Positions 6,101 to 50,600 of a stretch of DNA of 64,000 bases are shown piece by piece. The DNA is from Nemertoderma westbladi (Eukaryota; Animalia; Xenacoelomorpha): contig JAUCBJ010006704.1 of assembly GCA_032718475.1 (NCBI GenBank), positions 1 through 64,000 of the forward strand, read 5' to 3'. Each line of letters starts with the position of its first letter. The stretch's first letter is position 1. Made by a program: the position numbers and the translations under genes. The notes beneath the pieces are model-generated. The model did no database searches. It was not told the origin of the DNA and worked only from the letters and a program-made list of their open reading frames with translations.

Positions 6101-9100
6101 CCGAAGTCATGGAGATTGGGTTCGCTGTGATCCAAAGTAATAGAACCCCCACAGAAGTTGGGATGCTGAAAGAGTGCTATGTAGGAACCAGTACCATCTA
6201 GTGCGGTCAATGCCCTCACGCTAGGCAAATAGTAATAAAAATAATAATGTTGATGTTAATTACAATACAATAATGGGTTACAATAAACAATGTCTACGAA
6301 AAGTTAGAGAGTTACATGGTTACATTGAGTGTATGATCTTGGATTAAAGTTAAGTTGACTGCAAAGTGACCTATTTGGCAACATGTTGAACCACATTGAC
6401 TGAAGTTTAAATCCAGGCGGTTTCAATGTGTGGTATCTGGACATTGGGAACTTGGTGGATACCTATCGCGCGAGTAATAGTGGTGTAAGACCTCACATAA
6501 CGTTGAGTCGGTTTTAAGTGTGAGCTCTATATCAACCCACAAAGAGTGATATCTTCTCCCTCAGAGCTTATAGTCCCACTGCTCTCACCAGATGGGGGGG
6601 GGGGGGGTGTCTGGATGCATTAAAAATTCATCCCTCTCCAGGGGAAATTTGATGCAAATAGCTGATTACTCGCAAAAATAAAACTGTAACCTGTTCTATT
6701 GTGTTTAGTTTATTATTTTGGTTAAAATAACGTGCCACTGCAACCTGCTCCTTTCCCTAAATAGAGAATTTAACTTTGAGGTGGGATATCATTTCGCCAA
6801 GATGGGATTTTCGTCCAGTTCCCATCATGGTCTCACAGTCACATAATCAATCATGAATAAGTTCAAAACCAGACTCATCTGAGATGCAGATCCCAGCACT
6901 ATCCCCTCCTTGGAGAAGCTCACAGGAAGCATGCATGAGGGTTGATGCGAAAATATCTTGCCTCTATGACAAACTTGCTCAGTGACCTTCTGATGAAGTA
7001 TGACTCAAAACCTGAGTTCAGTCCCCAGCACAAATGCAGGTATGGTCTCGTGCTTCTAACTTCAGCAGCTATCTGTGTCACTCTCTCTGTGAGGTTTCCA
7101 CACTTCCCCCAAACACCCTCTAATCCTGGCATTCTCCCTTCTCTCCGCTACCACTATGATCGATAGCTCTATGTCGACCGATATTATTCACCTGGTTTTG
7201 ATGTAACTACCACTTCATGGACCATTACTAAGGGAAAATATACAGGGAAAATTAATTTACTTTAGATGGATGATATCATTCCCATCAGCTTTCTGGGCCT
7301 CAAACTAAATTACGCATATTCTAGAATTCCAACGTCACGCCACCTCAGTTCAAGGTCACTGAGACTGCTCACACTGCGGTAGAGACATACAAAAAGGCTC
7401 TAACAGGAATTGCTTTGCTAATTTCGCAACATTTCTGAAGTTTAGATATTATCAACCAATTAATGATATTCAATGTTTAAAATTACATTTTAAGAAATAA
7501 AGCTTTAATTTTTTTTAATATTTCAATTTTCGAATAAAAGTTCAAACTCCAAATCGTAATCTATCACTTTATAAGATGACAATTATTGTCTCTAATAAAA
7601 TACTCGTTATTGCTGGCTACTTGAAATGCTCGTTCTGTATTTTTATAAAAGTATCAAATATTTATGACGCTTAGATTATGAACTATGAAGTAAATAGTTA
7701 TATATTAAATTAATATATCTTCATATTGTATATTTTAGACTTGCAGCTACTAACCTTGAAATAGTATTATCCCGAGGACCACTTGTACCCCAGCTTATAG
7801 GCTCAGGGTAATCACCTGGTCCAATTACCGAAGGCCTTCCGCAAAAGTTATCCTCATAGATGATCCACCTTAATAAAAATAAATATGACATGACGAAATA
7901 AATTTAGTGAATGTCTAATGATGTTATACTGTATGTAAATGTTATATGTTATATGAGATACGAAGTAGAATTATGTCTAAACCTTTGTCAGCTACAAAGT
8001 TTGTAACCTACCCTTAGTCAGTTTAACATTGCTTTAGTTCCGCATCCAATATATTCATTCATGTCTGATACCTTTTGTGCCGGATTACTTACGTATTTAT
8101 TTTACTCGATTGAGAGTTATGTCCCATAATTTGAAAATTGAGACTGGAAGGTGGTTAAGGCTGTCGAGAGAGAACCGTGTGTGTCGCTGTGATAACCAAT
8201 CGGTGCAGACAGAGACACACGTTCTTAACTTCATTGTCCCAATTCCAAACCGTTTCGTGTTACCCCCTATTTTCACACTAATCTTATTTTTTTCATCATT
8301 ACCGGAATTTTTTCAGAGTAAGGAATTATGTATGTAATGTGTAAGTATATAGAGCGTGTTTTAGATAGTATGGATTAATTAAATTAGGTAAGAATATATT
8401 AGTTTGGATTATATTAATTAGGATTAAATTGTTTGTATTTGAAGTCATAATAACTGGACGATATTTTTTATTGCCGTAATTGTTTATTTGTAAATGGTTG
8501 TTTTGGTCTGTGTACGCGCTTTTGAAGACCTTTAGCAGTTTAACCTGCCAAAATTTATATGTCTTTTGATTCATAAATATACTTTAGAAGATGACAAATA
8601 TTTAATACCAATAAACACAACATTAGCAGAAGCCAGCCTAGTGCGCGTCCATTCACCCGCTGGATAATCCCGGGAGACTGGATTCTGTCGGCTTAGATTA
8701 TTATTGCAGTGAAGCTTACGGTATTGTATTATTCGATTGATCGTTAATAATTAATTTCTGACTAATATTATTCACTTTCGGGAAATATTAACCGTTCCTT
8801 TAGGACGTGGCGCTCTATCTAAGTAAACAGAGCTATGACTTATACTAATCACAACGGTAAGTCGGTAAGGCTTATGATTCACGTATGAGGCGCATTCTTT
8901 AGGAAATGCCTAGTTATCAGCCACAATCATGCACACTATCAGTAACACACAATACTGCTCACTAATTTGCCGACCGTCAATGAATTTTATCATATATAAA
9001 GAGAATAGCAACGGACCAATGTAGTGCTTATCAAATAGCATTGAATTCAATACACACCACAATAATATAAGTCGCAATCGCTATAAATATAACCCGCCTC

Positions 9101-12100
9101 TCTAACCTGTAGTGTATCAAGAAAATTGGGAAATTTGGGTTCTTTATAAATGTTCTCCAGATAATATTCAATCAACTGATATAAAATATGACAACAGTAA
9201 AAACATTAAGACGGTAGGTTAAGATATGATATATTGGAAGAGACGGTAACAATACCTGCAATATCCTACTGTAAAGTTTGTAAATCAAATCATAAATCCG
9301 ACCTTCTCACCAAAACAGTAAACTCTAAGCAAGCGAATATATTGCAGTATCGATCTCTTATAACCGGTGAGGCAGAAAACAGTCTACGAGCAGACAAACT
9401 TCGATAAAACAAATCCCGCGCAGCGAATCCTAAAATCAGGCTGACTCACTGACGGACTAAGGGGCTCGTATACTTTGCCGCGGTGTGATTTATATGGTTG
9501 GGCGAAGAGACGCTAGCTAGGTACAGGCAGAGATTTGGAGATGTCTAACTAGCGGGCAAAGCACAGTACGGACAAAGTTAATTTTATATATTTTGAGGTG
9601 TAAATAATTTCTAACGCGCGTGTGTTAATTCTGAACGGTCAAAACAGTTTTGCTCCTTCACATATATAATTACTGGGTACGGTGTGCATTTTACGAATAT
9701 TCTAATTTTATAACTTGTAGGTCCAATACTCACGAATGATAAGGTTCCTTCCCCTCTTGCGTATTTCCAGGACTCAAATTCAGGCATAAGGTTAATACTA
9801 CGCCCAGAATTCGGCAATTTTAGGTACCAGGTCCCTGATACTAAGAAGAGATGTGTTAGTTTACTACTGTAGGCGTACGGGTACTAATAGCTATCCTGGC
9901 TCCTATCTAGAATTTTAGTCACCCAGGTAGTCCGGGTAACTTCCTATTAGGGCGTTGGCGGGGACACGGTAGATGTTAGTATATCCCTAATAGCCTCAAT
10001 TTATTTGCGCCTAGTACGTAAACTGCCCTACCGCCCGAACGGTACAATCCCAATTCAGGTGAAAACACAGCAACCCCCTAACCTACAAGTTCTAATGCAA
10101 TGGACACTGTCGTACTGCAAATAGTCGCACACACACCTGTACTTAGCAAGAGTTAAGCGTACAGTTTGCTGCACCCTAACCAATGTGTATGCCTTGTACC
10201 GGTGTGCCTACGTCCTATCTGCGTACTAGTATCTGCCTGCGCTCTCTCTCCCCCCCGTAGGAATGTGAAGGTCTACTGTGGGTTTTCCTGAATCAAGACA
10301 GTACAGTCCCTATGATGTAATTTTGGGCTTACAGCGTGTCACTACGTCTACCTTTTGATCTTTTGGTCTTATACTTAGGTAGCAAGGATCGAACGCTGTC
10401 TAACCTTTCAGGCGATGGGCGAATAACTCTAAATGGTATTGCGGGTTGTCTCTCGTCTACATTCCCGTGATGTTCCCGTTCATTGCTGCGGCCCGATCTC
10501 TAGCCGGCCATCCTGTCCCTGAGTTTGTTCACCGTAGTGAATCCATAGTAAAACAGATAGAAAAGCTGAGAGAATATTCTGACTTTATTACAGAAGATTA
10601 TAATAATATGTACAATGTAATCTGAAATAAACTAAGCACAACAGAATATTGATAAGATAATCTGTGAAGTAGAAGTGAAATTGAGAGATTGATAACTAAT
10701 GAACAAATCGCACCTTTATATAGCAAATTTGTGCCGCAATCAATCGAGAAAATTCTCGATTGTTCTATAGATTCTAACAAGGTTTTAAAGATAGCTATTG
10801 GTCCAGCTAATATATAACTTGCACGACATTGGTTACAATCAAATAACTACAGCCTCATTGGTACAGACAAATGCAATTAATTTGTAGCGGTTAATTTAAA
10901 CGAGTTGAAATTCTGTACAAAAAATAATTCGCACTTACTAGGATTCGAACTCGATACCTACTACACATATAATTTCCAACGCTCTACCAACTGAGCTACT
11001 GAACCACTTGACCGATAGATGTACAAATGATAGAACCAATACGAATGAGAACTCAAAGCAATCTTTACAAAGTTAATTCGAATAAAATAAAAATTTTGAA
11101 AATCCACGGCATTTAGGGAATATAATTCTATATGATATGAAACAACAGTGATATGCACTGATGTGGACCGATAACAGTTATACGCTCTATAATCTTAAGC
11201 CTACTAATGTTTCTTCTAAAGTATGAAACGAATTAACTCTAGAGCCGGTGTTTCTGGCTTAGACAGCAATAACAACAAAGTATCAAGTAAAAACAGTAAG
11301 ACTGAACACTCTCCTTATGATCGGCCGAAAAGCTACACGTCGACAGGAAAAATCGCTCTGATTGGCTCAAGCCAAACAAAGAACCATGCGTCCAATGGCT
11401 GTTTCCATGTCAGCAACCAGCTGTTAGATGTCGTAATATGAATCATCACGGCTAAGCTGTGAAAGGTATTTGGTGCATTGTAGGTTTTTTGCCTTACCAT
11501 GTCCGCCAAAACACGTATATAGCAGAATGACTTTTATGTCCGTTAAAACACCTATAACGGTACCTTGCGGGCGAGGGGAATATATATACAATTAGAGAAC
11601 CTTTTTAGAGTATTCCAGCGCCTGGGGGGAAACTGGATTGCGAAGCAAAGGGGCCAGTTATATCCCACAGAAGCTTTTACACCGCTCCCAGAAAATGGGA
11701 TTTGTGTCTATGAAATATACAAAATCACAGTTTCTAATATACGTAAATACTCTAAACAGTTAGTCTTTTTTGCGCGGACGGCGTTTACGCAGTTTTTTAA
11801 AGCTAGCCAGAGTCCTTTTCTCTTTGGGGCGAGCCACTTTACAAGGAGGGCTATAACTCCTGGGTGAAGGGTGCAATATGATTGCATCAGAGGGTATAGG
11901 ATTATGGTCGGTGTATCCGCCAGTCGAAGTACCGGGTTGATTGACATCAACGTCGGGGGAGAGGGGTCTAACGGCTTTGAGAGCGCGTTTTAAGACAGCT
12001 GCTCTTACGGGTCCTTTACGAGTGGTCTGAACGAGAGCCGTGGGTGGACCATAGGCAGTCAGAAACCTCCGGGGTTTAATGGTTCTTTCCAACTCGCGTT

Positions 12101-15100
12101 CGCGGGCTCGGTATTCATAAGGCCGTCGATATACTTCCTGTAACTCGGGGTGTGAGTTAACAAATAAGTCTCCATAGTCCGGGTCCTGGCGGATATAATT
12201 GATTAAGCTATAGGAATGAAGGTCGCAAGGATTAACACTCCTGAGAAATTTGCGTACGAACTTGGTTGAAATACATTCTCCGACGCGCTTCAGTAGTTCG
12301 TAACTCGATATGCGTGATTTCTGTTCGACAGAAGCGAATAGATAAGTATGGAACGCATAAACTCCTTCGTAAGCGCGTCCAGGATAATAACGATGGCGCG
12401 AATCACAATGTAAATCAGCGTTCGCTTCCCAAGCTCTGATCTAACGTAGTGTGATCATTTCATCTAAGCTAATTCATCCAAATCGTGATTAAAAGGGCAA
12501 TCGAAACTGGCGTGTCCCTTTAGTTGACAGTGGTGACATTGAGTCATAAATTGAGGGCAAACCGCAAAGATATGCAAGTTATTGAGTCTGCAATATGCGC
12601 AATAAATTTCCATAGTCGGTTGTTCTTGGAAACAAGCTGGCAAGCCTGGAGGGTTCACGGTCCTCCTACTTAATCAGTACAATAATAATACGTTTTCGTT
12701 CGGGTAGGCCTATGTTTCCTTTTCACTTGTTCCCATCGTAGGCGACCTCATGCTCATCCCACCACGACCACGACCACCAGTTACGAGTTGGGTAGGCGTC
12801 TACCGGCAACCGGTAAGTAATTACGCGCCACACGACGTCATCCCGCCATCCGCCAACATTTATACCGGTTCGGTAAGCCTACCACCTACCGGCTGGCTAC
12901 CATCGCACCGTAGGTCTACCGCCTACGCCTACCGGTCAACCGGTAACGGCAGGCTACCGCGTACCGGTACAGCGGTACTCAAAGTCGTACCAGTCTGCCA
13001 GTATTGTCGTAATTGACAAATGCAGGATTAAACCGTAACCCGTTCCGGTACCGGTACCATATGCATCTGAACGACTGGACGGTTAATCTCATAGCATAGC
13101 TGCATAGGCCTACCGGTAGTCAGTGCGAAGTCGCCTGCGAACATGGCGAAATATTATATTTACTGCTAGGGCTAGGCTAGGACCTACCAGCCTACTGCTG
13201 TACTGACCTATGACAGTATGAAGATAGGCAGATAGGCCTACAGTGGTCAGGTAGTACCGGTCCGGTATGCCTACTACAGGCAGACAATCAGACAGTACTA
13301 GCAGTGCTAATTAATTACCTTAATTAAATCTTCAATTAGGTCATAATGTAGGTCCAAATTTAAAAATCGGCCTCCGTTAATCGATTTAGAAATAATTCAG
13401 GTACCTCCATGCCAAATATCAGAATCATTCATTGCGTTCCCTATGACAAGATAGCTTTTTCCTAAACCATGCGAAAACACGCAAATATAGCGCTCACATC
13501 GCACAAATACCATCTCGACACCCAATTTTTTGTATGAGCCTTCGCCATCCCTATATCTAACTTTTGTCCAAATTTTGTTTCGATTGATTAATAAATAACT
13601 GAGATATCGCTCTGGACACACACACACACACACACACTAACACACACACACACACACACACACACATTACGGTAATAATGGTCACTTATGTCAAAGACCG
13701 TGAACCAATAGGAACAGCGGACGTTGGTGTCCATGGGCGTATCGTGGTCTCTCGATGCGCATAACCGACAACGTTGCCTAGAAACATAGTTGGCATGTCG
13801 ATAATCGTACGCAGTGAGACACTGTGGACCTTGATACCATTCTATGATGTAGTCGTTGTCGCTGTTCCGGGCGCGATAGGCTGAATCTCCTCAGATTCTA
13901 GGCATATTGGTTCGTCTTCCCAGTCTGTTACGAATAGAATTTTCGTGATATATTTTCGGTTTATCGTTACGACTCCGCTGGGTATGATATTTAAATAGAA
14001 CCATTTCCCTTTCGGTGTCTACATCGTCCGTATCATGTAAATCGATAGGATGGCAGGTAGTTAGGAAGTCCATATACGTACCATTACGATGCGTATAGCG
14101 AGCGGTGAATTTTCGATAGTCCAATTCACGCGTAAGTTGCTCTTGGGACATCGGCGGTTCAATATAACGACCATCGTCCTCCGTAATGGTTGGATCGGCT
14201 TCACCGCGTATCAAGCTATCCACAAATGCTTGTAAAGGTAGAGTATATCGCTCCCTGATACCAAGATCATCTTATATCAACTCCGTCATATCTGCTATCT
14301 GAGTTTATTAATATTGTAATGAGTTTATGTTTAGGCGAGCGGGCGTCGCTGCCTACCTCTCTTCGCCCCGGACAGTGGGATTCTCAGCGCCGATGTACCG
14401 TCGTCGCGGTGTTTACGCCAACATGTAGCAACAGCAAGACAACGATAACCGGCACAAGTCACTCCACTGTCCGTCCCAAAGGCTTGAATCCACTTTAGGT
14501 TCTTTCTATAGGAGAGTTGGGCTACTTTCACAATTGCGACTAGCTACTGTAAACACACCTTAGCAGTAACATTCACTTACAAACGCACAAATTCCACACA
14601 ACTGTCACCAATTGTACACATACAGGCCATTTGTCCGTTAGTCAGTGCCTTCCAGAATGTCACGTTATTACTGTGTATCCTTGGATACTAACAGTGTGTT
14701 ATGTATTCTCTATGCTATGCAATGGGACAAGCTTTCTATTGTTCTTTTAACTTGCTTCTAATTCTAGCGTGGGTGTTACTATGGTGACATTATGGAATGC
14801 TAGCGGTAGAATTAGGGTAATTCTCATGCATACAGATCTGGGATGCTATTTAATAATAATTCTTTAATTGTCAATATCCTCTTTATGCATGATTTTATTA
14901 ATTTTATCGGCTATTGACTATATGTTGGAGATTCTCGCACTCTAATACTCTCAATAGGATGAATCTCCGCTCCCATGATCTATTAATTAATGGAATTTTG
15001 GGAATGTTATAAATTGTACAAAATGACAATTTATGAAATTCATTTAAAAATATGAATTTAAATTTATTCCCGTGAATTTTATTATTTGATGTTAAAATTG

Positions 15101-18100
15101 ACACAATTTTTATTCCAGAGCATGTCTGGGGACTGAGGATCTTTAATTCTATAAAATTGTCTTTTAAGAGTATCGGTAAGTGCTGCGATATCTTAATTGA
15201 CTAGAAATTTTAAAGTATCCGAATTTTACAGATTTTAATAGATATTAATTAATATTTAAGATGGGCACCGATTTATTCCAGAACTTGTCTGGGGACGTTA
15301 ACCATTGATTCTAGAATTTGTCTTTCAAGTATATCGGTGGGTGCCGCGATATCTTAATCGACTAGAATTACAGATGGTCAAAAGTTTAACAGATTTATTT
15401 GCGTTTTACGCTACTGTTAGAGGGACATCACGCTACTATATGTATTATTTAATATAAGGTAGAAGAGCAATATCGCACGAAGCAATGTCAGTGTGAAGAG
15501 GCAAGTCGTTTCCAAGGTCTACCCAGAGCTTGGTTTAGCCGAGACACGAGGATCTGAACTTTGCATTCCTAATACTCTGTATTAGATCCAATAATAGAAA
15601 ATACTAATATCAGTTCACAAAATAATAATAATGATTTTATAATTTGTTAATATATATATATATATAAACTTGTCAGTCTACTGACTTACAATCATTGAAA
15701 GCATACTACTAAGCTTCAGTAATTAACTTATTCAGTACTGCAGTAGGTGTTAAGCACCAAATCTTAAAAACTAAAAAAAACATTCTCTTTACCGGTATCA
15801 AACTGTCCATACACTAATGTGTATCTCTTACACTACCCCCCCACCAGTAGCGGAGCGTCTTGTAGGTTATATGACTTGATTTTAGGACGAAGGTTAAACT
15901 TAACAGTTTTCTTTTTTCGTTTCTTATAATCGTTTAGTGCTAAATCAAATGCCTTTTTGTATCCCCGAGTTGTTCGGTTATCAATATTTTGTTCAATTGG
16001 ATTGAAGAGTTTTATGTTGTTCTCTGGAACAAATTCAATGCGATTAGACCCGTAATAGTGGACAGGAATCTTAGGTATAGATGAGCATTGTTTGTTTTGT
16101 AAAGATGGTATTACTAATCCAGGCCACGTTGGATATCCATCTTCTTTAGCCATTACAACAAGTCCTGGTTTGAACGTATTTTCGCCATATTTTCTTGTTG
16201 TCATTACAGGTTCTTTGTTGTTTTTCATAGGTTTGATTTGTAAATGTGAGTTATTTGTAGTTGATTTCTCATCATTGTTTGATTTCTCATCATTGTTTGA
16301 TTTCTCATCATTGTTTTGGATGAAAGCTGGTTTGGTTCGGTCTATCGAAATCTTTTGAGTCCTTCCTTTAATTTCAACTGTTACAGTTTTTTCATCGCGT
16401 TCTAGAACAACATATGGACCAGTATATCGATCACTGAGTGAAGATTTGACGCGTTCATTTCTAATCCAAATGTTATTTGCAGTTTCAAGTGATTTTGGGA
16501 TATATGTTTTTTTATTGAATTGTCTCTCTGGGGCTCTATAGGAATCAATAGTTTTAAATAAATTATTCATATAGTCAGGAAGACTCTTTTGTTCATTTGT
16601 TTCGGTTGGCGCAAAAAATTGCTGGGGTAGATCGATTGTACCACCATATACCATTTGTGTTGCAGTATATCCATCAGGAGCAATACTATTGCGTAATCCA
16701 AGTAATACCATCGGTAATGTATCAACCCAGGAAGATGTGGTTGCATGACATCGTAGTGAATTTTTCAGAGTTCGATGAAATCTCTCTACAGCGCCATTGC
16801 ATTGGGGATGATAGGTTGTAGTTCTTTTTCTATTAATTCCAAGTGAATGCATTAATTCACTCCAAACAGCAGATTCGAATTGACTTCCCCTATCAGTTAT
16901 TAGTTCTCTTGGAACGCCGAATCTTGATATCCAATTAGTAATCATGGCTTTTGCAACTGATTCCGTGCTTATGTTATTTACTGGAATAACTTCAAACCAT
17001 CTTGTGAAACGATCAAGTATTGTAACCATATATTCGTATCCTCTAGATTGTGGAACTTTACCAACTATGTCTATATGTACTGTTTGGAATCTACCTGTAG
17101 TTGGAATACCACCAATAGATGATTTTGTATGAAGTGTTATTTTGCATTTTTGACAGCGCTGGCATTCACGGCACCAACGTCTAATATCTTTCCGCATTCC
17201 TGGCCAAATATATTTGCCTGAAACCATGTTTAATGTTGGTTTAGTACTTGTGTGAGCCAATTCATGCAACTGTTTAAATAGTTGAAATCGCATAATAGTA
17301 GGAACATATGGACGGAGATAATCCTTTGAGGCATCACAGACCAAAATCGAGTTTCAAATTTTCACTCGTTTTAGTGGTAGAGTTGTTTTCTGAAAAAATT
17401 GTGACAGTGTGGAGTCATTATGTTGTTCTTTAGCTAGTTTTTCATCAAATTCAACAGATATGTTACTGCAATCGCGAGATAATGTATCAGCTACTATATT
17501 GGCGGTGCCTGATACATGAGATATGTGGCAATTGAATTCGGAAATATAAGATAGCCACCTAGTTTGTTGCGGAGATGGATTTTTCATTGTTAGTGCATTA
17601 ATTAGTGGTTTGTGGTCAGTTTTAATGTCAAACTCAACAGAAATGAGCCATGAAAAATGTCGTAATGCAAGATAAATTGCAAGTAGTTCTCTGTCAAAGG
17701 TAGACTTCCTAGATTCAAGTTCAGTTAGTTTCGCAGAAAAAAAAATGCAAGTGGTTGTCTTTCACCATTTTTCAATTGGTTCAACACTACACCAACAGCA
17801 ACACCAGAGGCATCAGTTGTTAGTTCTAATTTTGCAGTTGAATCAGGAAATGCCAGTGTAACTGAGTTTTTTAACATTTCTTTCAAATCAAAGAAGGCTT
17901 TCTCAGCTGTATCATTCCATTCTAAAGGTTTAAGTTTGTTTGTTTTATCTACAAAACGAGTCAAATCTGTTAAAGGAGTTGCAACTCGTGAAAATCCAGG
18001 AATAAATCTGTGATAATAACCAGCCATACCAAGAAAACGTTTTAATGTCTTTATTGTGGTTGGTGTTTGAATTTTTTCTATAGCCTTAACGTTATCTAAT

Positions 18101-21100
18101 AATGGTTTTATTCCTGCACTGGAAATTTGAACACCAGCAAATTTTATTTCTGAACAGAAAAATTTGCATTTGTCTAGTCGTAATTTTAAACCAAGTTGTG
18201 TAAATCTATTTAAAATTATTGACAAATGTTGAAGGTGTTCTTCTTCATTCTTGCTTGCTAAAGTGACATCATCTTGGTATCCCCAAGTAAACTCTAAACC
18301 ATTGGTAGCGGAATCCATGAGTCTTTGGAATGTTGAACTAGCATTTCTCATTCCATATAACATCCGACGGAAAATAAACAAGCCAAATTGAGTTATTATT
18401 GCAGTCTTTTGTTGATCTTCGGGGTGAACTGGAATTTGTATGTATGCGGAGGCCAGATCGAGTTTTGAAAATACGGTACATCCTTGAAAACCACTCGGAA
18501 GGTCATTTAGGTTAGGCATTGGGTAACGATCAGGTACTGTTTGATTATTTAAGCCACGATAGTCACCACAAGCACGGAATGGTGTTGTTTTTGAGTTTGG
18601 TTGTTCTACTATATGCAAAGGGGATGCATAAGGTGATTCACCACGATAACATACACCAAGTTGTTCCCAATTTGTAAATATCTCTTTCGCTATTTGTAAT
18701 TTATTTCCATAAAGTCGGCGAGCTCTACAATAATATGGCGCGCCTTTTGTTATTATGTGATGTTCTACTTTGTGTTTGACAGGAGTGGATATGTTGATAG
18801 GAGTGAATAAGTCGGGATGGTTATTCAATAATCGCTTGACACTATCGCGATATTGATTATTTTCAATTGTAATATGACAAATATTAAAATCAATTGAATT
18901 AATTGAGTTTGAATTAGTTGCTGGTAAAGTTTGTTTTATGCTATCTGTAGATTTAGGTAAATTATCTGAAGAAATCAGTCGATTATTCACGCAATCGATG
19001 AGTAATTTTTCTTTTTTTAAAAAATCTATACCTAATATTGGTTTTGAAACATCGGCTACATAAAAGTTCCATGTGAATACTTTGTTACCAATATCAGGCA
19101 GGGTAAACATTAAAGATTGTATTCCATTAACTTTAATAGGAGTTTGGTTTGCTGCCTTTAAATTTATTTGAGGAGTTGGGCGAGTTTCTAATGTTGTATA
19201 ACTTAGAGGAAGTACACTACAATCACTCCCACTATCAGCTAAAAATTTGCCAATTGGATTTGCGGTCACAAAGATTGCATTTACTCCATCGCAGAAGGCC
19301 GCGGTCGCGGTGGAGTATTGGAGTTTCCCTGATGCTGAGGGAATCGGAAGTTATCTGGTTGTACCCAAGTGCAATTACCTGTACATTTTGTGGAATCCTT
19401 TCCAAATTTCCAGTGGTACCAGCACAATGAGGGAGTTTGGTTGAAAGAACGGGATTGGGAGTGTCCTCGGTAATATGATTCAGATCGATTTCTATACCCA
19501 GTGTCTCGGTCTGTGCTGGGATATCGTGAACGACCTCGTTCGTTTCTAGTTGATAGGGAATTAATAGCTTCAGATAGACGGTTGATTTCTTGAGTAATAT
19601 TTTGGCACCAGGCCTGCATCTCAGGTGGAGGATTAATGTTACTCTCTGTTTTGGGTTTAACAGTTACTTCATTTACTAAACTATGACTTGGCATATTTTC
19701 AGTCATACGATCTGCTATTTCAGCAAGTTTATCTATGGGGACACCGTCTATAGAAATCAATACAAGCCGAATTGGTTCTGGTAGGATTTCTAAAAATCTT
19801 AATTTAACAATATTTATGTTATTGGGTGCTAACCTCTGTAGATGTCGTAGTATTACGGATGGTTTCCGATCTCCAAGGCTTTGATCCTCTAGAAGTTTTT
19901 TCAAACGACGTTCTTCACTGTCGTCATAATATTTAATCAGACTTTCCTTAATTATATTAAAGCTGTCAGTAACCTGTGCCCCACTGTCAAATATGACATT
20001 AGTAGGAAGCACACGAAGTAAACTATTTTTCTTTATTGGTTCCGGGGTTTTATCGAGAATTTGCTCTATCTGGTCAAACCAAACATGGGTGTCTTTTTCA
20101 TAAAATTGTGGCAACTTGACCGTTTGAGTTTGGTGAGTCGAGAATCCTGCATCAGTACTGCTACTGGATAAATTTGGGACATTGCGTAAGCTTTGCTGAA
20201 CTTGATTAAAGGCTAGCTGTACAAACGTTTTATTTTGTTGCTTAAGTTCGTCTAGGATTTCTCCTTTAGTTTGTGGGGGTTGATATGATACATCTTCACT
20301 GTGTAGAATTTCAAGCACAGCTTCCAGTATAGACTTTGGCGCATTGTATATATCTGTAGACATTTCGGCTATTCTTTTATTGACTTACTGTATACTGACA
20401 TGACATACCTGGAGTTTAAATAGGCCCAATACGAATTAATCGCACTACCGGGCCAGCGTTCATCCTGCCGGTAATTTTGTGCTGGTACCAGGTTCGTTCT
20501 GAGTTCAGTTCAACATTCTGACATTCCAGCATTTACACCTAGGCCTAGTCGCTAGTCGTTGGCGTTGATGTTTAATATCTCGTCCGGGTCACCATTATTA
20601 GATCCAATAATAGAAAATACTAATATCAGTTCACAAAATAATAATAATGATTTTATAATTTGTTAATATATATATATATATAAACTTGTCAGTCTACTGA
20701 CTTACAATCATTGAAAGCATACTACTAAGCTTCAGTAATTAACTTATTCAGTACTGCAGTAGGTGTTAAGCACCAAATCTTAAAAACTAAAAAAAACATT
20801 CTCTTTACCGGTATCAAACTGTCCATACACTAATGTGTATCTCTTACACTCTGCCTACCAATAATACTTGAATATAGTAGTGGCTTTATTGTACTTTAAG
20901 AAGTACGGACATTTCATCTTACTGTAATCACGTATTTATAATATGATACGGACAGTAAGGAAAGAGAAAAAATTATTTCTCGCCGTCGCACTGAATATAT
21001 ATTATAAGTAATTACGTACGTAATAAACACTAATATATTGCACTAATCTACTAAATAATCACTAAAATAACATTATACTAAATAAAATTAAAGAAAACGA

Positions 21101-24100
21101 TTATAATAAAATTACATAATAATACATACATAAATATAAAATAAAAACAAATATAAAATGATATAGTCACACACCCACTCCATATGTTATTACGTTATAG
21201 AGTCCCTAGATATTTGTCGGATTAGGGAAGTGGTCGTAGGAAGAGTATCTTGCCTTCCATAGTTTCCGGACAGTTTTCGGTCTCTTTCCAGTAAACATAA
21301 ACGACCAGCTGGGCGATTGAGTTGTTGTGTTACTTTCTCCGCTCCCTTGGCCTGTCTAATCTCCGCCGGGGTAAGATGAGGAGGCCATTCTTCTTCTTCT
21401 TTACTTAAGAAGTCGGATCCACCTAACCAGCCTGGAGTATCTATTAGTTCTTGAGGAGTTGCTCCTCTGGAAACGATGTCGGCTGGATTAATCGTCCCAA
21501 GGCAATGTCTCCATTGATCTATATTGGAGTTAATATCGTCATTATCTGAGGAGTATGGTGTTCCCTCAGTTGGATCGTCTACATCACTGCTCTCCACTTC
21601 CCATTCCTTTACTTGGTATACCTGTTGTTGAGGTAATCTCTCTTTGAGAGTTCTACGGGAAGGGCCAGTGAAGTACCAACCTACTCTAGTTCTTACCGCA
21701 TAGGTTTGCAGTGGCTGCGGTTGAGCAGGCCGTTTCTCCAATGTCTCGAGCGCCTCATGCGCGTTTTGGCCAATGAGTATTTGCACTCCAGGATAATCTG
21801 TCTGGAATCGAGGTATCTTAAGATGTTGGATGCTCTCATCCTCGTCCCAATTATAAAGGTCTGCTTGGGTAGTAGCGAAGTTCTTTATAGCCACCATTTT
21901 TACTGACCTTATACTTTGTGCTCCTAATTTATCCTGGGGGGTGGACAACGCACCTACATAGTAATCTGCCGTTATGGTAGATTTCCAAACCTGCATAATT
22001 CCGGACATATTCAACTTAGTTTGGAATTTGGGTTGTCCAGCAAAGATATCTTCGGCTAGTTCTTGATCGATGAATGTTCCTGTGCTGCCAGAGTCAAGGA
22101 GGGCTTTCACTATGTAACTTTTGTTGGGACCGTGAACTCTTACTTGCACTACAGGAAATTCTCTGATTCCTACGTTGGAAGTTGGAGCTTTCCAAGATGG
22201 TTGTTTGGCATAAGTAGTTGGGGGAAACTCATTGTTGGTGTCCTTTTCATAAGTAAGTGCTCGATACACTGAGGTATTTATTAGGTAACAGGATTCGATG
22301 GCGTCGGAGAATTCGTCAGTATAGAATCCTTCCATCTCAGACTCTTGATCAGTGTCATTTACATCACTGAATTGGACATGTAGTTCGGGCTCACTTACCT
22401 GACTCGGGTTGTTTCGTTCGAACTCACTGTGTAACAAGATGTGATGTTTCGCGCCACACTTTGCACACTTTACGTCGGAGTAACAGGTTCGCCGTTGGTG
22501 TCCTGATCTGAGGCAATTATAGCATAACCGCTTATTCCACAGGACTGTACGTCTGTCTACAAGGGATTTCTTTAGAAATTCAGCACACGCACTCAAATGG
22601 TGGGGCCCGTCGCACAGCGCACATTTTGGTTTGATGTTACTCACCTTACCTTGGGTAACGTTATGCACTCTCGTTCTTTCTTCGGGCTTTCTTCCGTGAA
22701 TTCTCTTAGGAGACGTAGGAGGAGTTGTTGTTACCTGTTCTCTCCTGTCACTGGTTCGAGACTTGTATTTACTTACGTCTTTATAGGTCTTGTTGTCATA
22801 GTAAGATTTTGCTGTGTCTTTCCCGCTGTCCTCTTCTTGAGAAGCTTGGCTTTCGCCGTCGTCAGTATAACACACTGGTATTATCCTTCTCCTAGAAACG
22901 GGTTTCTCACTTACCTTATTTTCTGATGTTTTCTCTCTGGACTGCTTTATGAGTTGTAATTTTACTTCACTATCTAAGAAGGACATGAGATCAGCCATGG
23001 TAGGGCTTCGTCGTTGTTGTTCATTCATGTACAACACTTTCTTGTCCCAGCGCGTACATACTCCACCCTTTGGTAAAGTAGAGACTACGGCTCCAATAAC
23101 CATGGAACTCTGATATTCATGAGACTTACCTAACCAGTCCAATTGTCTACAGATTTCCTGAATTTCATCGGAAAACTCTATAATCCCGCTACTAAGGAAG
23201 TGTCGGGGGGCTACTAATTTTGCATACAAATACTTAGCTATGTTATCCTTGTTACCATACCTGATGTTTAATGTATCCCATACTTGTCGTAATCCTTCTG
23301 GATGTCCAATAAACTTTAACGCCATTAACCTGGGAGGTCCTTCCAAGCACTTGATGAGGAACCTAAGTTTCTCTCTGTTAGATAGCACAGAGTTCTGTAT
23401 GCTGTCTTTGTAATATTCATTGAAAGGTAACCATTTCATCTCATCTCCATTGAATTTGACGATCTCTCCCACTTTGACCGCTTGGCGGGCTTCTGTTCTA
23501 GCCATCTGACGCGTAAAGCTTTCTTGGGCCATCGTGTTATTCAATATGGAATTATCGGTGTATAAATTTCTCGGATCATTATCAGGTCTATAGGGAATAT
23601 CATTAACAACAGGTCTATAATCACCCTTAATAGGGTTTGCTATAGGAGTTTCTACTTCACTAGCAGTATAGATGCGTGTAGGCTCCACACCTTGCGCATG
23701 TAATACTTCAGACCTAACAGGTTGACACAATGTTACAGGGGGTATTGGTATGCCCTTTTGTATATTGACTAATTTGTCGCGTTCCAGCGCGATACTTTGC
23801 TGCACTTCTTGCAACTCTGCCCTACCTTCCCTTACTGTTCCCTTAAGTTGGTGGACAGTCTCCTGCATCTGTCCGAGCAGGAGGTTCATCCCCCGCCGTC
23901 CCTCCTCTACCCACTCAACCGCCGAAGCGGGAGTCGCCAACATTGTAGCGGGCTGACGCGGGACGACGGGAGACAAATCTTTGATTCCTCTGTCAATGCT
24001 CAGGACAGGGGTATTCGCATGGACTGTTCCATCGGGTACAGGTAGTGTAGTACTGTGTAAAGGGAATTTAGAGTTAAGCTCTGGAAGTGCAGGGGTCTCT

Positions 24101-27100
24101 AGCACAGGAGTGACTTTGGGAACGACAGGCCTAATTACTTCAGGCTCATCGACTATAGTAGGGAGTCTTTTGACCTGAATAAATTGTTCTATGGGTTCTA
24201 CACTACCTAAGTCTGTGCTAGTTAGTTGTCTTTTAACAGCTGGGGGCAAATCAGGCAATTTGTGACGGTAAGATGTTTTTCTACGCCTGCTTAGACGAGA
24301 TCTATTTCCTCCGCCTTCAGGATCGGTGGTTTCGCTTTCCTCCGATGAAGTATAGCCCTGGCATTTGGGAGTAGATTTTCTCATTATCTGCATGTGACTA
24401 GCAGTTAACTGTTTATTTATGTTGTCTTGCGTCTCTTGCAGCTTCTCCAACTCCAGTTGGGTAGTCTGCTCAGACGCTCTCCGTTCTGCTTCTGCTACTG
24501 CCTTTTTCGCCCTTGCTTCTGCTTCTGCCATGGCCGCCTTTGCTTCTGCCGCCGCTGCCTTTGCTTCTGCCGCCGCTGCCTTTCTTTGTATTTCTACTTC
24601 TGCCCTTGCTGCTGCCTCCTTTCTTTCTGCTTCGGCTTCTGCCATGGCCGCCGCCCTTTGTTCCTCTATCCGTCTTTTCTTTACTTGTTCTTCTTGGACT
24701 CTAACGAGGCGGAGTTTTTCATCAAATTTAGCTTGGTTTGCAGCTAACATTTCCGCATCGATTGCGTCCAACACAAGCTTGGTTCCTTCACTATTAGGGC
24801 GAAGTCCAGACAGTCGTCTCCTCAACTCTTCGTCTCCTATGAATCGCTGATAGTCTGACAGATAGATGTCAATGGCGTCTCTAGTTCGCGGCTTTTCTGC
24901 TGATGTTAATTCGCTTTCCACTTCGCTTTCCACTTGAGAAGAAGTGGCGTCGGTTGATTCTTCATAGGTTGGCCGTTCATCATAAACCGTATCCACCATC
25001 TTCGCTCCGCGTTCGGGTGTCCGCTCAGCAGTATCCAAACTACTGGAGCTATCGGGCCGCTGAGAACTAGGTTCTAGGCTAGGATGTTGCTGCTGTTTGA
25101 CAGCTGCTTCTTGATCCCGCTTGACTTGGGCCCGAGTACCGATGATAGACCTACGTTGTTCTACTAGCCTAGGGTCTGACACTACTACTGTAGGGATGGC
25201 CTTTTTGACAATAGTAGGTGACTTAGACTTGGATCTAGGATGTTCTAGACTTGGATCTGGGTCATTGATCTTTTTAAGACACTGTCTAACAGTCATTCTA
25301 ACACTTTCTAAGAGACTATCCGACAGTGATTGGGTTGTGTCTGACATGTTTGTTTACACAATTGAATGCCTACGGCTATAAATACAGTTAAAGCAAGTCT
25401 AGCAATTCAGTATCACTGTTAGCCTAATAATTAATTACCGATACTGCTACTCAGTGTAGCGTGATATATATATAATATATTAGAATACCGGTATGCTTAT
25501 AGTATATATATAAGTATTATTACAGACTAGGTTTGTCACAGAGTACCGGTATATAAATTTAGCACAAATATATATAAATATATAATAGGCCTATCGTGAA
25601 TACCGGTATACAGCCTACACTTATAGTATATATAAGTATAATTATGAACTAGAATTAATTACAGAATACCGGTATGATTTCAGCTAAAATTTATAGAAAT
25701 AAATATAATAAGCCTATGGCAAATACCGGTATGTCAATTATTTTAGAATAATTGAATTTCTGAATATTTAGGGTTACTTGGTTACTTTAACTTACTTTGT
25801 TACCGTTATTTAAGCAGTAGTCCAACTGATTTTGAGACCTAGTTGTTGTATGGCAGGCCTACTACTTATAAATCGTTTGAGTTGATTTATAATATATATA
25901 TACCCGTTAAAAGGGTTTTGTCTATATTTGAAATAAATGTTATTATTTCTGGGGGAGTCACTACACAGAAGCTGTGCGCTCTCAGTGAAGTGCTATTTAT
26001 GGGACACTAAAACAGATAATTCTAATTTACCTAAGTTACTTAATACTACAAATTACTTACGATATGGGTGAGATTAAATCTCTAATTAAACACAACAAAA
26101 ATATTACGTACGAAATTTTTAGGGTAATTTTACAGGAAGTCTACAAACCAGCCTAACAAAGGGTTAGAATTCTGGTTATTACAACGGACAGGGTACTACG
26201 GTATTTGAAACAATAAGTAGTAGTAAATATATTGCACTGTCCAGATAGGAAAATACCACCGCCTGACGACCTATAACCGTATCGCTATAGGTACTACGTT
26301 ATGTATCACGGAGTGTTCCTACCTAGAAGTTAATTACCGCGGACTACCAGATCCAGCGTGCCTATTAACCACTTTACAACACAAATTACCGCCTACACAC
26401 TAATTACTTCGGGAAGCACTGTACACTAAACCCTAAATTAGGTACAAGTAGTGGTACAACAAATAATCAGTAGTTAAATATACTTGAACAGTTAAAAGAA
26501 CCACGGCATCTGCTGGAGTGACCAGAGCACAAAGTCACCAGTCTTGTCCTACGCCAAGCAGCCCGTGTAGTACCGGGTTAATTTAACTATAACGGTATGT
26601 GTAACAAACACAATTACTGTAGGAATAAACTTGGGGACATGAATGTTGCGAATAATCGCATAAACTCTGAATAATAAATATTACGCTACCCGTACAGAAT
26701 ACTCAAACAAAATACAAACCAAACGCTGGCAGACTACCACCAAGCCTAAATAAACTACTGTATGTGCAGATTCCAAAACGGTTAGTTAGTATGCGTTCTA
26801 ACACGGTAGTACGACTTATTCTTTAAGAGGGGATTGACCTTACAGTTATGACTGCCCCAACTTACTAACTGGCACTTTATCAGACAAACTCTACACAAGC
26901 AGCAATCTCTTCAGACCTAATAATAGCTAGACAACAATCCAGCCTACAAAATATCTGAGTAATAACTATTACGGTATCTGAACAGACTACACAAACAAAC
27001 ACAAGCCAAAACGCTGGCAGAATACTGTCAAGCCTAAATAAACTACAGTATGTGCAGATTCCAAAATTGTTAGTTAGTATGCGTTCTAACACGGTAGTAC

Positions 27101-30100
27101 GACTTATTCTTTAAGAGGGGATTAACCTTACAGCAATGGCTGCCCCAACTTACTAACTGGCACTCTATCGGACAAACTCTACACACGCCGTAATCTCTCC
27201 AAACTCAACAACAATCAGACAGCAGCTAAGCCTACAATTATCTGAACAATCTGAGCAGACTTACACGTCTTCAGCTCAATATTAACTTACTAGTAAATAA
27301 ATCCGACAGAAATGAGTAAAATCTCAATAAAAAACCAGGGCTGCAGTCCCTGATTAAATACTAAGACCTACCGGTATACAATAATCAAAATCGAATAATA
27401 CTAATGTACTTATACTGGAAGTACCGGTTAGGACAGTTGGGCCTACGGACCTACAGAAGTACCGGTTCTGGCAGTTGGACCTACGGACCTACGGCAGTAC
27501 CGGTTCTGGCAGTTGGGCCTACTGACCTACAGAAGTACCGGTTCAGGTTTACCGGTTGACCGGTACTTTCAACTTTATTGCTTACTGCAATAAAGTCAAT
27601 AACTGTTATTGTACGCGCTTTTGAAGACCTTTAGCAGTTTAACCTGCCAAAATTTATATGTCTTTTGATTCATAAATATACTTTAGAAGATGACAAATAT
27701 TTAATACCAATAAACACAACATTAGCAGAAGCCAGCCTAGTGCACGTCCATTCACCCGCTGGATAATCCCGGGAGACTGGATTCTGTCGGCTTAGATTAT
27801 TATTGCAGTGAAGCTTACGGTATTGTATTATTCGATTGATCGTTAATAATTAATTTCTGACTAATATTATTCACTTTCGGGAAATATTAACCGTTCCTTT
27901 AGGACGTGGCGCTCTATCTAAGTAAACAGAGCTATGACTTATACTAATCACAACGGTAAGTCGGTAAGGCTTATGATTCACGTATGAGGCGCATTCTTTA
28001 GGAAATGCTTAGTTATCAGCCACAATCATGCACACTATCAGTAACACACAATACTGCTCACTAATTTGCCGACCGTCAATGAATTTTATCATATATAAAG
28101 AGAATAGCAACGGACCAATGTAGTGCTTATCAAATAGCATTAAATTCAATACACACCACAATAATATAAGTCGCAATCGCTATAAATATAACCCGCCTCT
28201 CTAACCTGTAGTGTATCAAGAAAATTGGGAAATTTGGGTTCTTTATAAATGTTCTCCAGATAATATTCAATCAACTGATATAAAATATGACAACAGTAAA
28301 AACATTAAGACGGTAGGTTAAGATATGATATGAAACAACAGTGATATGCACTGATGTGGACCGATATCAGTTATACGCTCTATAATCTTAAGCCTACTAA
28401 TGTTTCTTCTAAAGTATGAAACGAATTAACTCTAGAGCCGGTGTTTCTGGCTTAGACAGCAATAACAACAAAGTATCAAGTAAAAACAGTAAGACTGAAC
28501 ACTCTCCTTATGATCGGCCGAAAAGCTACACGTCGACAGGAAAAATCGCTCTGATTGGCTCAAGCCAAACAAAGAACCATGCGTCCAATGGCTGTTTCCA
28601 TGTCAGCAACCAGCTGTTAGATGTCGTAATATGAATCATCACGGCTAAGCTGTGAAAGGTATTTGGTGCATTGTAGGTTTTTTGCCTTACCATGTCCGCC
28701 AAAACACGTATATAGCAGAATGACTTTTATGTCCGTTAAAACACCTATAACGGTACCTTGCGGGCGAGGGGAATATATATACAATTAGAGAACCTTTTTA
28801 GAGTATTCCAGCGCCTGCGGGGAAACTGGATTGCGAAGCAAAGGGGCCAGTTATATCCCACAGAAGCTTTTACAGTCTGTATAATTTCAATTTGAATTAG
28901 TTATTCTGTGCCGTAAAATTATTTCTTGGAACAAATACGTCAATAAACATATATATATATAGGAGAATGAAAGATTAAAGGTTGAGATTGATTGATTGGA
29001 TTGCTCCTATTTTTACGATTTAATAACGTTTGTGAGAATATTATATTAATTTAATTATATTATATTATTATAGAATGTATTGTATAGAATGTATATAGAA
29101 TATATATATGTATAGAATATAATATATGTATAGAATGTATATCGAATGTACATAGAATGTATACAACGTATTTATTATTAATGTATCAAAAATTACTCTA
29201 GAGTAGGTAATTTACTATACTTGAGGACCGGAGACTGGAGACATACAAATTGTAAGTATGTATTAATTAATTTTAACGATATCAAATTGGTGAACCTATT
29301 ATTTGTTCTAGAATATTTTGATGGGGAGTGGAATATTGGTTCAATAATATTAGTATATTTTATTAGTTCATAGAATAATCTTATATACTCGGCACTGCAT
29401 GACAGCTGCGCAGTGAGATGCTAAGCAGGCTTAACAAATAAATATATCCACCACATGCATGTAGTCTACAATTGGCTTGCAGTGATGCAGCCTGCATTAA
29501 GAATGCTATGCCGGCTTGTCGAGAAAGTTGCGCCTCCACACCTGACTTTCGCGATATTATCCGCATGTTCAAGGCCAGTTTCCTTTAAGAGGCGTCTTAA
29601 GTCATGGGCAGTAATGAACCTTGCCTATTTACACCATGGGGCTGCCAAAACACAATATTGAGCAAAGCCTGGTCTTTGCGGCTAAAACAATGTCCTGCCA
29701 ATCGGAGGTGGTTATGTTCAAGTTTCAAGCTTGGGGGGGGGGGGGATGAGTCAGAGTCATTTCCAATATTATATGATCTCTGGTTATCAGTAAACTACTT
29801 GACAAAAGATAATTTTATTATATGAATGATACTCACCATCCACATTCCACTTTTATACTGGACACAGCGTTCTCAGTTTCAGTTCTGTCAAAAGTTCCCA
29901 CATCTGTGTCGCCATTTACAGTCATTTTGTATCCCTGGAAGTTTCGATCTGTGTAGAGAGTTATTTTTGGACTCGGGCAATCGCCAGACACTTCCTTCTC
30001 CAGAAGTTTTATTGAAGAAACAGCATCCCTACCCGGTGGGTAGAAAGCGTCCCAATATGGGTAGTACCCAGGGTTGAGTATTATTCTAGGTCCATTGAAT

Positions 30101-47603: not shown

Positions 47604-50600
47604 CTAGATGTCGTTGGTATTGGAGTTCTGGAATCTCTGTACATCAGATAGTCGGGCAAGAAACTGAAAGTAGAAATAGAAAAACTAAGTTAAATAAAAA
47701 AGAGATAAGAATGTAATTAAAATTTATACAGGAATACTACATAATATATAAATGTTTTTCACCCGTGTGATAAATATTTTTCACCCGGGTGATAAATGTT
47801 TTTCACCCGTGTGATAAATGTTTTTCACCCGTGTGATAAATGTTTTTCACCCGTGTGATAAATGTTTTTCACCCGTGTGATAAATGTTTTTCACCCGGGT
47901 GATAAATGTTTTTCACCCGTGTGATAAATGTTTTTCACCAGAGTGATAAATGTTTTTCACCCGTGTGATATATGTTTTTCACCCGTGTGATAAATGTTTT
48001 TCACCAGTGTGATAAATGTTTTTCACCCGTGTGATAAATGTTTTTCACCAGTGTGATAAATGTTTTTCACCCGTGTGATAAATGTTTTTCACCCGTATGA
48101 TAAATGTTTTTCACCCGTGTGATAAATGTTTTTCACCCGGGTGATAAATGTTTTTCACCCGTGTGATAAATGTTTTTCACCCGTGTGATAAATGTTTTTC
48201 ACCCGTGTGATAAATGTTTTTCACCAGTGTGATAAATGTTTTTCACCCGTGTGATAAATGTTTTTCACCCGTGTGATAAATGTTTTTCACCCGTGTGATA
48301 AAAGTTTTTTACCCGTATGATAAATGTTTTTCACCCGTGTGATAAATGTTTTTCACCCGTGTGATAAATGTTTTTCACCCGTGTGATAAATGTTTTTCAC
48401 CCGTGTGATAAATGTTTTTCACCCGTGTGATAAATGTTTTTCACCCGTGTGATAAATGTTTTTCACCCGTATGATAAATGTTTTTCACCCGTGTGATAAA
48501 TGTTTTTCACCCGTGTGATAAATGTTTTTCACCCGTGTGATAAATGTTTTTCACCCGTGTGATAAATGTTTTTCAGCCGTGTGATAAATGTTTTTCACCC
48601 GGGTGATAAATGTTTTTCACCCGTGTGATAAATGTTTTTCACCCGTGTGATAAATGTTTTTCACCCGTGTGATAAATGTTTTTCACCCGTGTGATAAATG
48701 TTTTTCACCCGTGTGATAAATGTTTTTCACCCGGGTGATAAATGTTTTTCACCCGTGTGATAAATGTTTTTCACCCGTGTGATAAATGTTTTTCACCCGT
48801 GTGATAAATGTTTTTCACCAGTGTGATAAATGTTTTTCACCCGTGTGATAAATGTTTTTCACCCGTGTGATAAATGTTTTTCACCCGTGTGATAAAAGTT
48901 TTTCACCCGTATGATAAATGTTTTTCACCCGTGTGATAAATGTTTTTCACCCGTGTGATAAATGTTTTTCACCCGTGTGATAAATGTTTTTCACCCGTGT
49001 GATAAATGTTTTTCACCCGTGTGATAAATGTTTTTCACCCGTGTGATAAATGTTTTTCACCCGTATGATAAATGTTTTTCACCCGTGTGATAAATGTTTT
49101 TCACCCGTGTGATAAATGTTTTTCACCCGTGTGATAAATGTTTTTCACCCGTGTGATAAATGTTTTTCACCCGTGTGATAAAAGTTTTTCACCCGTGTGA
49201 TAAATGTGTTTATCACCCGTATGATAAATGTTTTTCACCCGTGTGCTATAAAATGTATAATGTGAGATATAAAATAAGAAACAAACTTTGAATTGTTTCC
49301 TTATCTAATAATATTATAAATATTACATTATTTATTATCTGGACGGGACGTATTGTAGCCTATTAATCATGAATTACACGAAAATGTCAACCAAGGAACA
49401 AAAAAAGTAACTTTCTCTAATCCAAATTGTTTTCCCATTGGTCGAAACTGTAAACATTTAGGTTCTCAAAAATGGTTATATTACAGAAATTGCTTCATTG
49501 GGTGAATTTTTATAGCCTCTGAAACATTTGGCAAAATATTTCAAAATTTGCTACTTTCTATTACTTTTTATTATTATATGGTCGAGCGAACTCGGACAGT
49601 GGAAATGAGATCCTTCCAGGCTTCCCGATTCTCCATAGTTGTCGCAATTTCGTTTCTCCCAAGTTCCGTTCTTTCAAGTTGATCTATATATGTTATGGCA
49701 GGTCGTCCACGACTGCGCTTTCCATGAGTTGGTTGCCAGAGAAGTAGATCGGGTATGACCTCGTCTTTACTTCGCCAGCAGTGCCCACTGAATCTTAATC
49801 TGCGTTCACGGAGGGTGGTTGATACAGGTGCTATTGTACCATAAAGCTCGGCGTTTGTCATGTGTTGTCTCCAGCTGATGTTTAGGGCTGCCCTTAGTAG
49901 TCTTGTGTAGCAACCGAACCATCAATTCGTTGTTCAAGTGATTTAGTCAGTGTCCAGGTATCACCCCCGTATAAAAATACACTTTCCACTGTGGCTCGAA
50001 AGAACTTAGTCTTCAGGTGCCTGGAGAGATCTGATTTCCAGATGGTATCCATTTTTGATAGAACTACCCAAGCCTTTGCTTTCCTAACTTCTATGTCCTT
50101 TTTGCTACTCTCTATCCATGATCCAAGGTACTGGAAGTCATCGACCTTCCTTAGTTGATTATTATCAATGGTTGTCAAGTTTCCATCAACATTAAAGGTC
50201 ATGAATTCGGTCTTGGTAGCATTTATATGTAATCCAACCTCCTTAGCAGCCCTCTCCACTTTATTTAGTAGAAGCTGTGCATCTGCTAGCGTATTAGAGA
50301 GCAGGGCGATGTCATCCGCAAAGTCGGTGTCTGTGACTGTAGTTGCCGGATATCTACTACTTCAGCGTTCTTGAAGTGTGAATCCCAGATCTTCACCCTT
50401 TGTGGCCGTCCTCATTGCGTAATCCAGCACAATTACAAATAGTAATGGTGCTAATGTGTCACCTTGCAGTACGCCAGCCAGGATTGAGAAAAACTCAGTT
50501 TCACCCTCTGGTGAGAGTACCTGCGCTTCTGTGTCACAATATAGCAATCCAATGCCAGCAACAATTACTTCTGGTATTCCATAAGCTCTTAGGATTTCAA

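Follow-up and report, generated by a model that had tools for sequence, protein, structure and literature searches.

Does an LTR (long terminal repeat) retrotransposon of Nemertoderma westbladi encode its own histone reader as part of its integrase and, if so, what might this reader bind and where might it send new insertions? The question is raised by a Ty3/Gypsy element, CsRn1-like by its motifs, which lies in a 64,000-nt stretch of DNA (contig JAUCBJ010006704.1, positions 1 to 64,000; hereafter the window). The first-pass annotation of the window, made from the letters alone, had proposed that the integrase of this element is fused to a C-terminal PWWP domain. We found that the integrase-PWWP fusion is real, and that it occurs in two further proteins.

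The PWWP domain within the integrase frame

The minus-strand frame at 15833-17353 encodes 506 aa and is open throughout, with no stop between the integrase and PWWP domains. Pfam recognized Integrase_H2C2, rve and PWWP (PF00855) in this frame and, at E <= 1, no Chromo domain. The PF00855 match covers residues 399-475 with 38.3 bits (E 1.9e-9 in the whole open reading frame, ORF), above the curated Pfam cut-off of 25.6 bits, and the score on the isolated integrase tail was 41.4 bits. The proposed fusion was thus borne out, and its motifs were found where they had been placed, with FKPG starting at 16174, VHYYG at 16063, YKKAF at 15961 and KKRKKK at 15925. The parts of the frame are as follows.

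16322-17353, minus strand: integrase with HHCC zinc finger, DDE core, GPY motif and SH3-like end (Pfam and motifs)
16175-16321, minus strand: low-complexity linker with an 18-bp tandem repeat (16261-16316)
15929-16174, minus strand: PWWP domain in the integrase tail, residues 394-475 (Pfam, PDB alignment, model and Foldseek)
15833-15928, minus strand: native integrase C-terminus after the PWWP domain, with a basic stretch, an RVxF-like motif and a DAPLL.GG end

We then compared the domain with known structures. The top PDB sequence matches of the window PWWP were the PWWP domains of LEDGF/PSIP1 and the HDGF family (E 4e-5). Folding from the single sequence gave low confidence (pLDDT 37.8), and an alignment-based model reached pLDDT 83 and contained five strands and a long helix, the five-strand barrel followed by a helix that is expected of the PWWP fold. 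The alignment behind this model held 10 sequences, including 7 host PWWP proteins, so the model leans on the alignment and is not independent proof. When the model was searched with Foldseek, all 42 matches listed were PWWP structures (TM 0.55-0.69). In the ESM Atlas, the window protein matched ordinary integrase clusters only.

Two breaks upstream in pol, a frameshift near 17737 and a stop at 17354-17356, would keep the window copy as assembled from making this integrase; the first-pass annotation had the fusion right and left these breaks unmentioned. Contigs of three sequencing runs (X1, X2 and X3; two samples and two studies, one of which may be the window's own source) differ from the window at both breaks, indicating that the breaks are either private to this copy or assembly errors. 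In X1 and in X4, which belong to two studies, a single contig spans the PWWP stretch with no gap. A single amino-acid change at window position 16035 (integrase residue 440, in strand 4 of the PWWP) sets the window copy apart from the contigs of each of the four runs and makes it a not entirely typical member of its family. Read depth over the element was about 50-270 (internal bins, X1-X3), which by itself gives no copy number. At least 28 substitutions were classed from the run contigs; they mix private changes with alleles and are too few for a selection test.

Relatives with and without the domain

We searched for the fusion in other proteins. When the last 126 residues were run with HMMER against 1.84 billion representatives, 10 matches came back, one of which (P0001) has a PWWP domain joined by a linker to the last integrase motif. 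A profile search returned two matches among 1827 candidates, P0001 and P0131. In P0131, the last part of the catalytic core is present together with the GPY motif and the SH3-like end; the PWWP domain follows, and the integrase part is 43% identical to that of the window over 129 aligned residues before the PWWP. PF00855 scored 45.4 bits in P0001 and 53.4 bits in P0131, both above the cut-off, and each protein forms a single-member cluster. The family search suggested by the first-pass annotation thus recovered the same fusion, clearly in P0131 and in part in P0001, with the cage aromatics kept. P0002, a further search match, was rejected as a repetitive false match without a PWWP domain.

The three fusion proteins are about 35% identical overall. 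Between pairs, identity was 38-45% in the PWWP and lower in the linker (10-30%) and the tail (13-29%), as would be expected under selection on the domain. Since it is fused alike in two proteins of about 35% identity and is better conserved than the linker, the PWWP is, judged from these comparisons, an old and retained module and not a chance read-through. The integrases of the window and P0131 were sisters in a tree of 98 rows (SH 0.89) and also in a tree of the 26 closest of these rows (support 94/84). In the PWWP tree, the three fusion PWWPs fell on one side of a weak branch (70/81), and the pair of P0131 and P0001 was supported (95/91). Among 8 host PWWP proteins, P0009 (a PWWP with an NAD-binding domain, which we take to be GLYR1/NPAC) scored best, with 45.5 bits against at most 31.3, whereas the best single-domain PDB match was LEDGF; the PWWP tree pointed to no one donor.

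The position of the domain was assessed against the tails of relatives without it, in which a short linker is followed by a basic motif. From 123 proteins (P0011-P0130 and others examined), the SH3-like end was located in 97, giving 88 tails of at least 15 aa. An RVxF-like motif occurred in 52 of these 88 tails (shuffles: mean 4.2, maximum 10) and is kept in the window tail, C-terminal to the PWWP. The last 25 residues of the window protein are identical at 12 positions to the end of P0121, which has no PWWP. The retained tail motif and the match to P0121 indicate that the PWWP was inserted into the native tail, which argues against a read-through into stray host DNA. The basic KKRKKK after the PWWP (15925), which had been listed together with the domain, is present but is the ancestral tail motif, also found in PWWP-less relatives. 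A second motif, [TLS]R[SYCT]GR, occurred in 38 of the 88 tails (shuffles: mean 0.08) and is absent from the tails of the window and P0131.

RVxF is a docking motif for the phosphatase PP1, and the RSGR-type motif presumably resembles the LANA anchor on the nucleosome acidic patch. From these likenesses, the integrase group may recruit PP1 and grip nucleosomes through short tail motifs. The pol protein P0098 of Lasius niger has, C-terminal to its integrase, an MSL2-CXC domain (56.9 bits), which either is another captured chromatin- or DNA-binding domain or stems from a gene model that merged pol with a host gene.

The fusion is rare. PWWP was absent from all 120 listed of 264 integrase relatives (precomputed domains and our own profile; best E 0.19), among which the nearest, P0011, stops short of the tail and is uninformative on this point. 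No full-length Pol with a PWWP (887-2530 aa) was present among 31 candidates, which is weak evidence, and scans of DNA loci for relatives gave 0 of 74 and 0 of 115 pattern matches in metagenome contigs and 0 of 155 in viral contigs.

The aromatic cage and the mark that it may read

The PWWP of LEDGF binds H3K36me3 nucleosomes through an aromatic cage and a basic DNA surface (PMC3663649; this and the other sources are cited from the accessible parts of their text). Its cage consists of M15, Y18, W21 and F44 and is flanked by H48 and E49; the mutants M15A, Y18A, H48A and E49A mainly lose mark specificity, Y18A still binding, and W21 and F44 are also core residues (PMC3663649). In the window PWWP, Y407, W410 and Y433 correspond to LEDGF Y18, W21 and F44, and the Y, W and F/Y residues are kept in all three fusion proteins. 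Among the DNA-contact lysines of LEDGF, K14 is kept in all three fusion proteins and K39 in the window. Basic residues also stand at the start of the PWWP helix, where their comparison with LEDGF K73-K75 is ambiguous in alignment register, and K+R exceeds D+E in all three fusion PWWPs. A methyl-lysine pocket is likely in the window PWWP, judged by these residues, and the mark that it would read is uncertain.

On balance, we lean toward the reading that the PWWP of this CsRn1-like integrase ties the integration complex to nucleosomes with a methyl-lysine mark, H3K36me2/3 being the most likely one. An ancestor would have captured a host PWWP coding sequence once, and selection would have kept it. 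After the integrase is released from Gag-Pol by proteolysis, the PWWP would be carried on a flexible linker, its cage would bind histone methyl-lysine, and nearby basic residues would bind nucleosomal DNA. Such binding would bias insertion and would be the in-cis equivalent of the in-trans role of LEDGF/p75 for lentiviral integrase.

Several observations weigh against this tethering. The three cage positions that the first-pass annotation had reported as kept are indeed Y407, W410 and Y433, but it omitted the fourth cage residue of LEDGF, M15, as well as H48/E49, and all of these are changed here. E404 occupies the M15 position in the window, with F or S in the other two proteins; N437/R438 occupy the H48/E49 positions, with N and R in the other two, so that position 49 is R throughout. 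Because W21 and F44 are also core residues, keeping their equivalents may reflect folding only. DNMT3B has a basic residue at the E49 position too, according to the alignment, and the changes at the flanking positions therefore do not exclude binding; however, DNMT3B has an acidic residue two places before that position, whereas this loop is acid-free in the fusion proteins. LEDGF K16 and K56 are replaced by D and N in the window. On the side of the family, P0001 retains only the last integrase motif and is weaker evidence than P0131, the pairing of the window and P0131 integrases narrowly misses the support threshold of the tool, and a single clade of the three fusion PWWPs is neither shown nor rejected by its branch. 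No contig spanned the 18-bp linker repeat among the 32 pieces listed (there are 12,527 more), so the reads do not independently join the integrase core and the PWWP. Finally, the sole insertion seen is nested in repeats, in the same intron as PWWP-less elements.

Part of this evidence would also fit a mark-blind anchor on DNA or nucleosomes, which raises chromatin residence and integration efficiency without steering to a mark; we judge this rather unlikely. The M15 and E49 positions are changed in all three fusion proteins, the latter to a conserved Arg, and the PWWP may have replaced the [TLS]R[SYCT]GR motif, if that motif is a generic nucleosome anchor, as its presumed likeness to LANA would have it. 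Moreover, LEDGF cage mutants lose specificity more than affinity (PMC3663649), and DNA binding has been reported for the PWWP domains of HRP3 and Drosophila P75 (PMC6547440, PMC11910589). The three proteins, 35% identical overall, nevertheless all keep the equivalent of Y18, and the basic DNA-contact positions are only partly kept.

The element, its insertion site and possible targeting

The Ty3/Gypsy element is 5.27 kb long and spans 15580-20848 on the minus strand. It is young, and its LTRs are identical. Beside the integrase frame, it has the following parts.

20596-20848, minus strand: 5' LTR, 253 nt, with ends TGT...ATA
15580-15832, minus strand: 3' LTR, same sequence as the 5' LTR
15575-15579, with a second copy at 20849-20853: target-site duplication of 5 bp, within a very high-copy host repeat
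20577-20594, minus strand: primer-binding site, 11 of 12 bases as in the CsRn1-like tRNA-Trp site (PMC2582038)
15833-15845, minus strand: polypurine tract, overlapping the last integrase codons
19281-20384, minus strand: gag with a CX2HX9CX3C motif (19371-19424; Gag residues 321-338)
17354-19350, minus strand: protease (DSG), reverse transcriptase (YQDD) and RNase H (DAS)

The primer-binding site begins one base past the 5' LTR, and the integrase stop codon abuts the 3' LTR. LTRs, primer-binding site, polypurine tract, target duplication and the order protease, reverse transcriptase, RNase H and integrase are all present, as in Ty3/Gypsy elements. Gag and pol overlap with a -1 frame change, and a slippery heptamer lies at 19323-19329; the stability of the hairpin past this site was no better than that of shuffles (z -1.55; 17/200). 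In third-position GC, the PWWP was not distinct from the rest of the element.

The CX2HX9CX3C Gag motif, the tRNA-Trp primer-binding site and LTR ends of the form TGT...ATA/AAA define CsRn1-like elements (PMC2582038). The window element shares these with the CsRn1 clade (CsRn1, PwRn1 and AgCR-1 to -14), including the TGT...ATA ends, and also the -1 gag/pol overlap and the DSG, YXDD, DAS and GPY motifs. On these motifs, it is called a CsRn1-like Ty3/Gypsy element and is not placed within the clade itself. All elements of PMC2582038 have a 4-bp target duplication and no chromodomain, whereas the window element has a 5-bp duplication and a PWWP.

Two larger features enclose the element.

7869-29836, minus strand: predicted 22-kb intron of a host gene with beta/gamma-crystallin domains
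8511-28874, minus strand: outer BEL/Pao-type LTR element without PWWP, host to the nested Gypsy element

Crystallin exon-like frames flank the region, with in-frame GT/AG sites (donor 29836, acceptor about 7870) in the predicted gene model. The BEL/Pao-type element is also young; its LTRs of 1.26 kb (8511-11681, with an insertion, and 27610-28874) are 99.6% identical. It contains a DUF1759 match in the ORF at 21190-25353 and a 1387-aa Gag-protease frame, and most of its pol is apparently lost through an internal deletion; its minus-strand frames at 11760-12440 and 13891-14271 had no Pfam match. The direct target of the Gypsy insertion (about 15300-15579 and 20849-21100) is a host repeat whose summed contig depth reached about one million in three runs; the run contigs also contain many empty-site joints for it. 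The Gypsy element thus lies in a high-copy repeat, which lies in a PWWP-less BEL/Pao-type element, which lies in the 22-kb intron. The first-pass annotation had taken the intronic position as fitting a preference for transcribed gene bodies; the intron is supported by the flanking exons and GT/AG sites of the prediction, but it says little on targeting, since a single nested insertion among PWWP-less neighbours is no evidence for or against it. H3K36me2/3 specificity and gene-body targeting are not established by these sequence data.

The host gene extends over window positions 2941-38330 on the minus strand, with a likely signal peptide, repeated beta/gamma-crystallin domains and at least nine exon-like frames; when nine frames were compared with Pfam, two passed the cut-off, six matched weakly and one had no match. 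Elsewhere in the window, we observed a LINE-like endonuclease-reverse transcriptase frame (50362-52716, minus strand), an integrase fragment of another LTR element (54987-55400, plus strand) and tandem-repeat arrays at 47748-49253 and 59922-64000.

The insertion site bears on a further explanation, which we consider improbable: the PWWP reads a methyl mark for a purpose other than reaching gene bodies, either another mark or methylated heterochromatin with its repeat-rich safe havens, or particle assembly or protection from silencing. For the sole insertion seen, the site is a very high-copy repeat that itself sits in another retrotransposon, the listed Foldseek PWWP structures include an H3K79me3 complex, and H3K36me2/3 has been reported in heterochromatin (PMC11076809, PMC8860380). 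Nevertheless, the same insertion is also within a predicted host intron, H3K36me is the mark read by the nearest relatives of known structure (LEDGF and the HDGF family), and the PWWP is attached to integrase and not to Gag. That the PWWP is a neutral passenger, captured from the host by chance in this copy or family, or that the join is an assembly artefact, is very improbable: the broken pol, the unbridged linker repeat and the 0 of 120 listed relatives would allow it, but it is largely refuted by P0131, as the fusion recurs in two independent proteins of about 35% identity, the domain is more conserved than its flanks and sits inside the native tail between identical LTRs, and its stretch is gap-free in contigs of two studies.

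Returning to the tether, we put forward tentatively its stronger form, in which a CsRn1-like lineage has internalised a LEDGF-like tether and its own H3K36me reader would send insertions into transcribed gene bodies. With the same reserve, such a lineage would mirror the chromoviruses on active chromatin, and would have arrived independently at an in-cis form of what HIV does with LEDGF. MAGGY chromodomains read H3K9me, and PWWP domains typically read H3K36me. Chromoviruses such as MAGGY resemble the window element in carrying a Royal-family methyl-lysine reader in cis at the integrase C-terminus; their chromodomain, placed at this same integrase position as the first-pass annotation had stated, is described as steering integration (PMC5053271; bioRxiv 10.1101/2021.11.30.470311). 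The window element differs in having a PWWP, no chromodomain and CsRn1-type marks. Lentiviral integrase with LEDGF/p75 (PSIP1) is alike in that a PWWP is linked to integrase, and LEDGF is the best PDB sequence match; however, LEDGF acts in trans through its integrase-binding domain (PMC5053271), whereas the window PWWP is encoded by the element and covalently joined. For LEDGF, targeting is shown; the role of the window PWWP is predicted, and the M15 and E49 positions differ.

Recurrent capture of chromatin readers by transposons is documented by Grau-Bove et al. (bioRxiv 10.1101/2021.11.30.470311), who surveyed 823 transposon-chromatin fusion gene models, mostly with PHD and Chromo. They name PHD, Chromo, SNF2_N, SET, Bromo "and others"; the accessible text names no PWWP fusion, and Supplementary Table 6 or Fig. 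5d might list one. The accessible part of a 2026 preprint on adenine-methyltransferase retrotransposons contains no occurrence of PWWP, and that of PMC12147562 has nothing bearing on such fusions. The first-pass annotation knew of no such fusion, and we found no description of an integrase-PWWP fusion in the accessible literature, a search that had subscription journals, Repbase and Dfam outside it. Reader-bearing Ty3/Gypsy integrases are thus known, and PWWP is new as a reader class, in that no description was found.

What attracts LTR elements to active genes has been asked in a Drosophila insertion study (PMC10018349), whose accessible text reports no data on a connection with fly LEDGF. 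A family with a built-in PWWP, compared with one without it, makes attraction to active genes testable through insertion maps in one genome. The window PWWP is small and can be assayed alone, and its altered cage could show how a captured reader shifts its specificity. In the accessible papers, the chromodomain is the histone reader that LTR retrotransposon integrases are described as encoding themselves, and it is linked to heterochromatin; the PWWP would add a class for transcribed chromatin.
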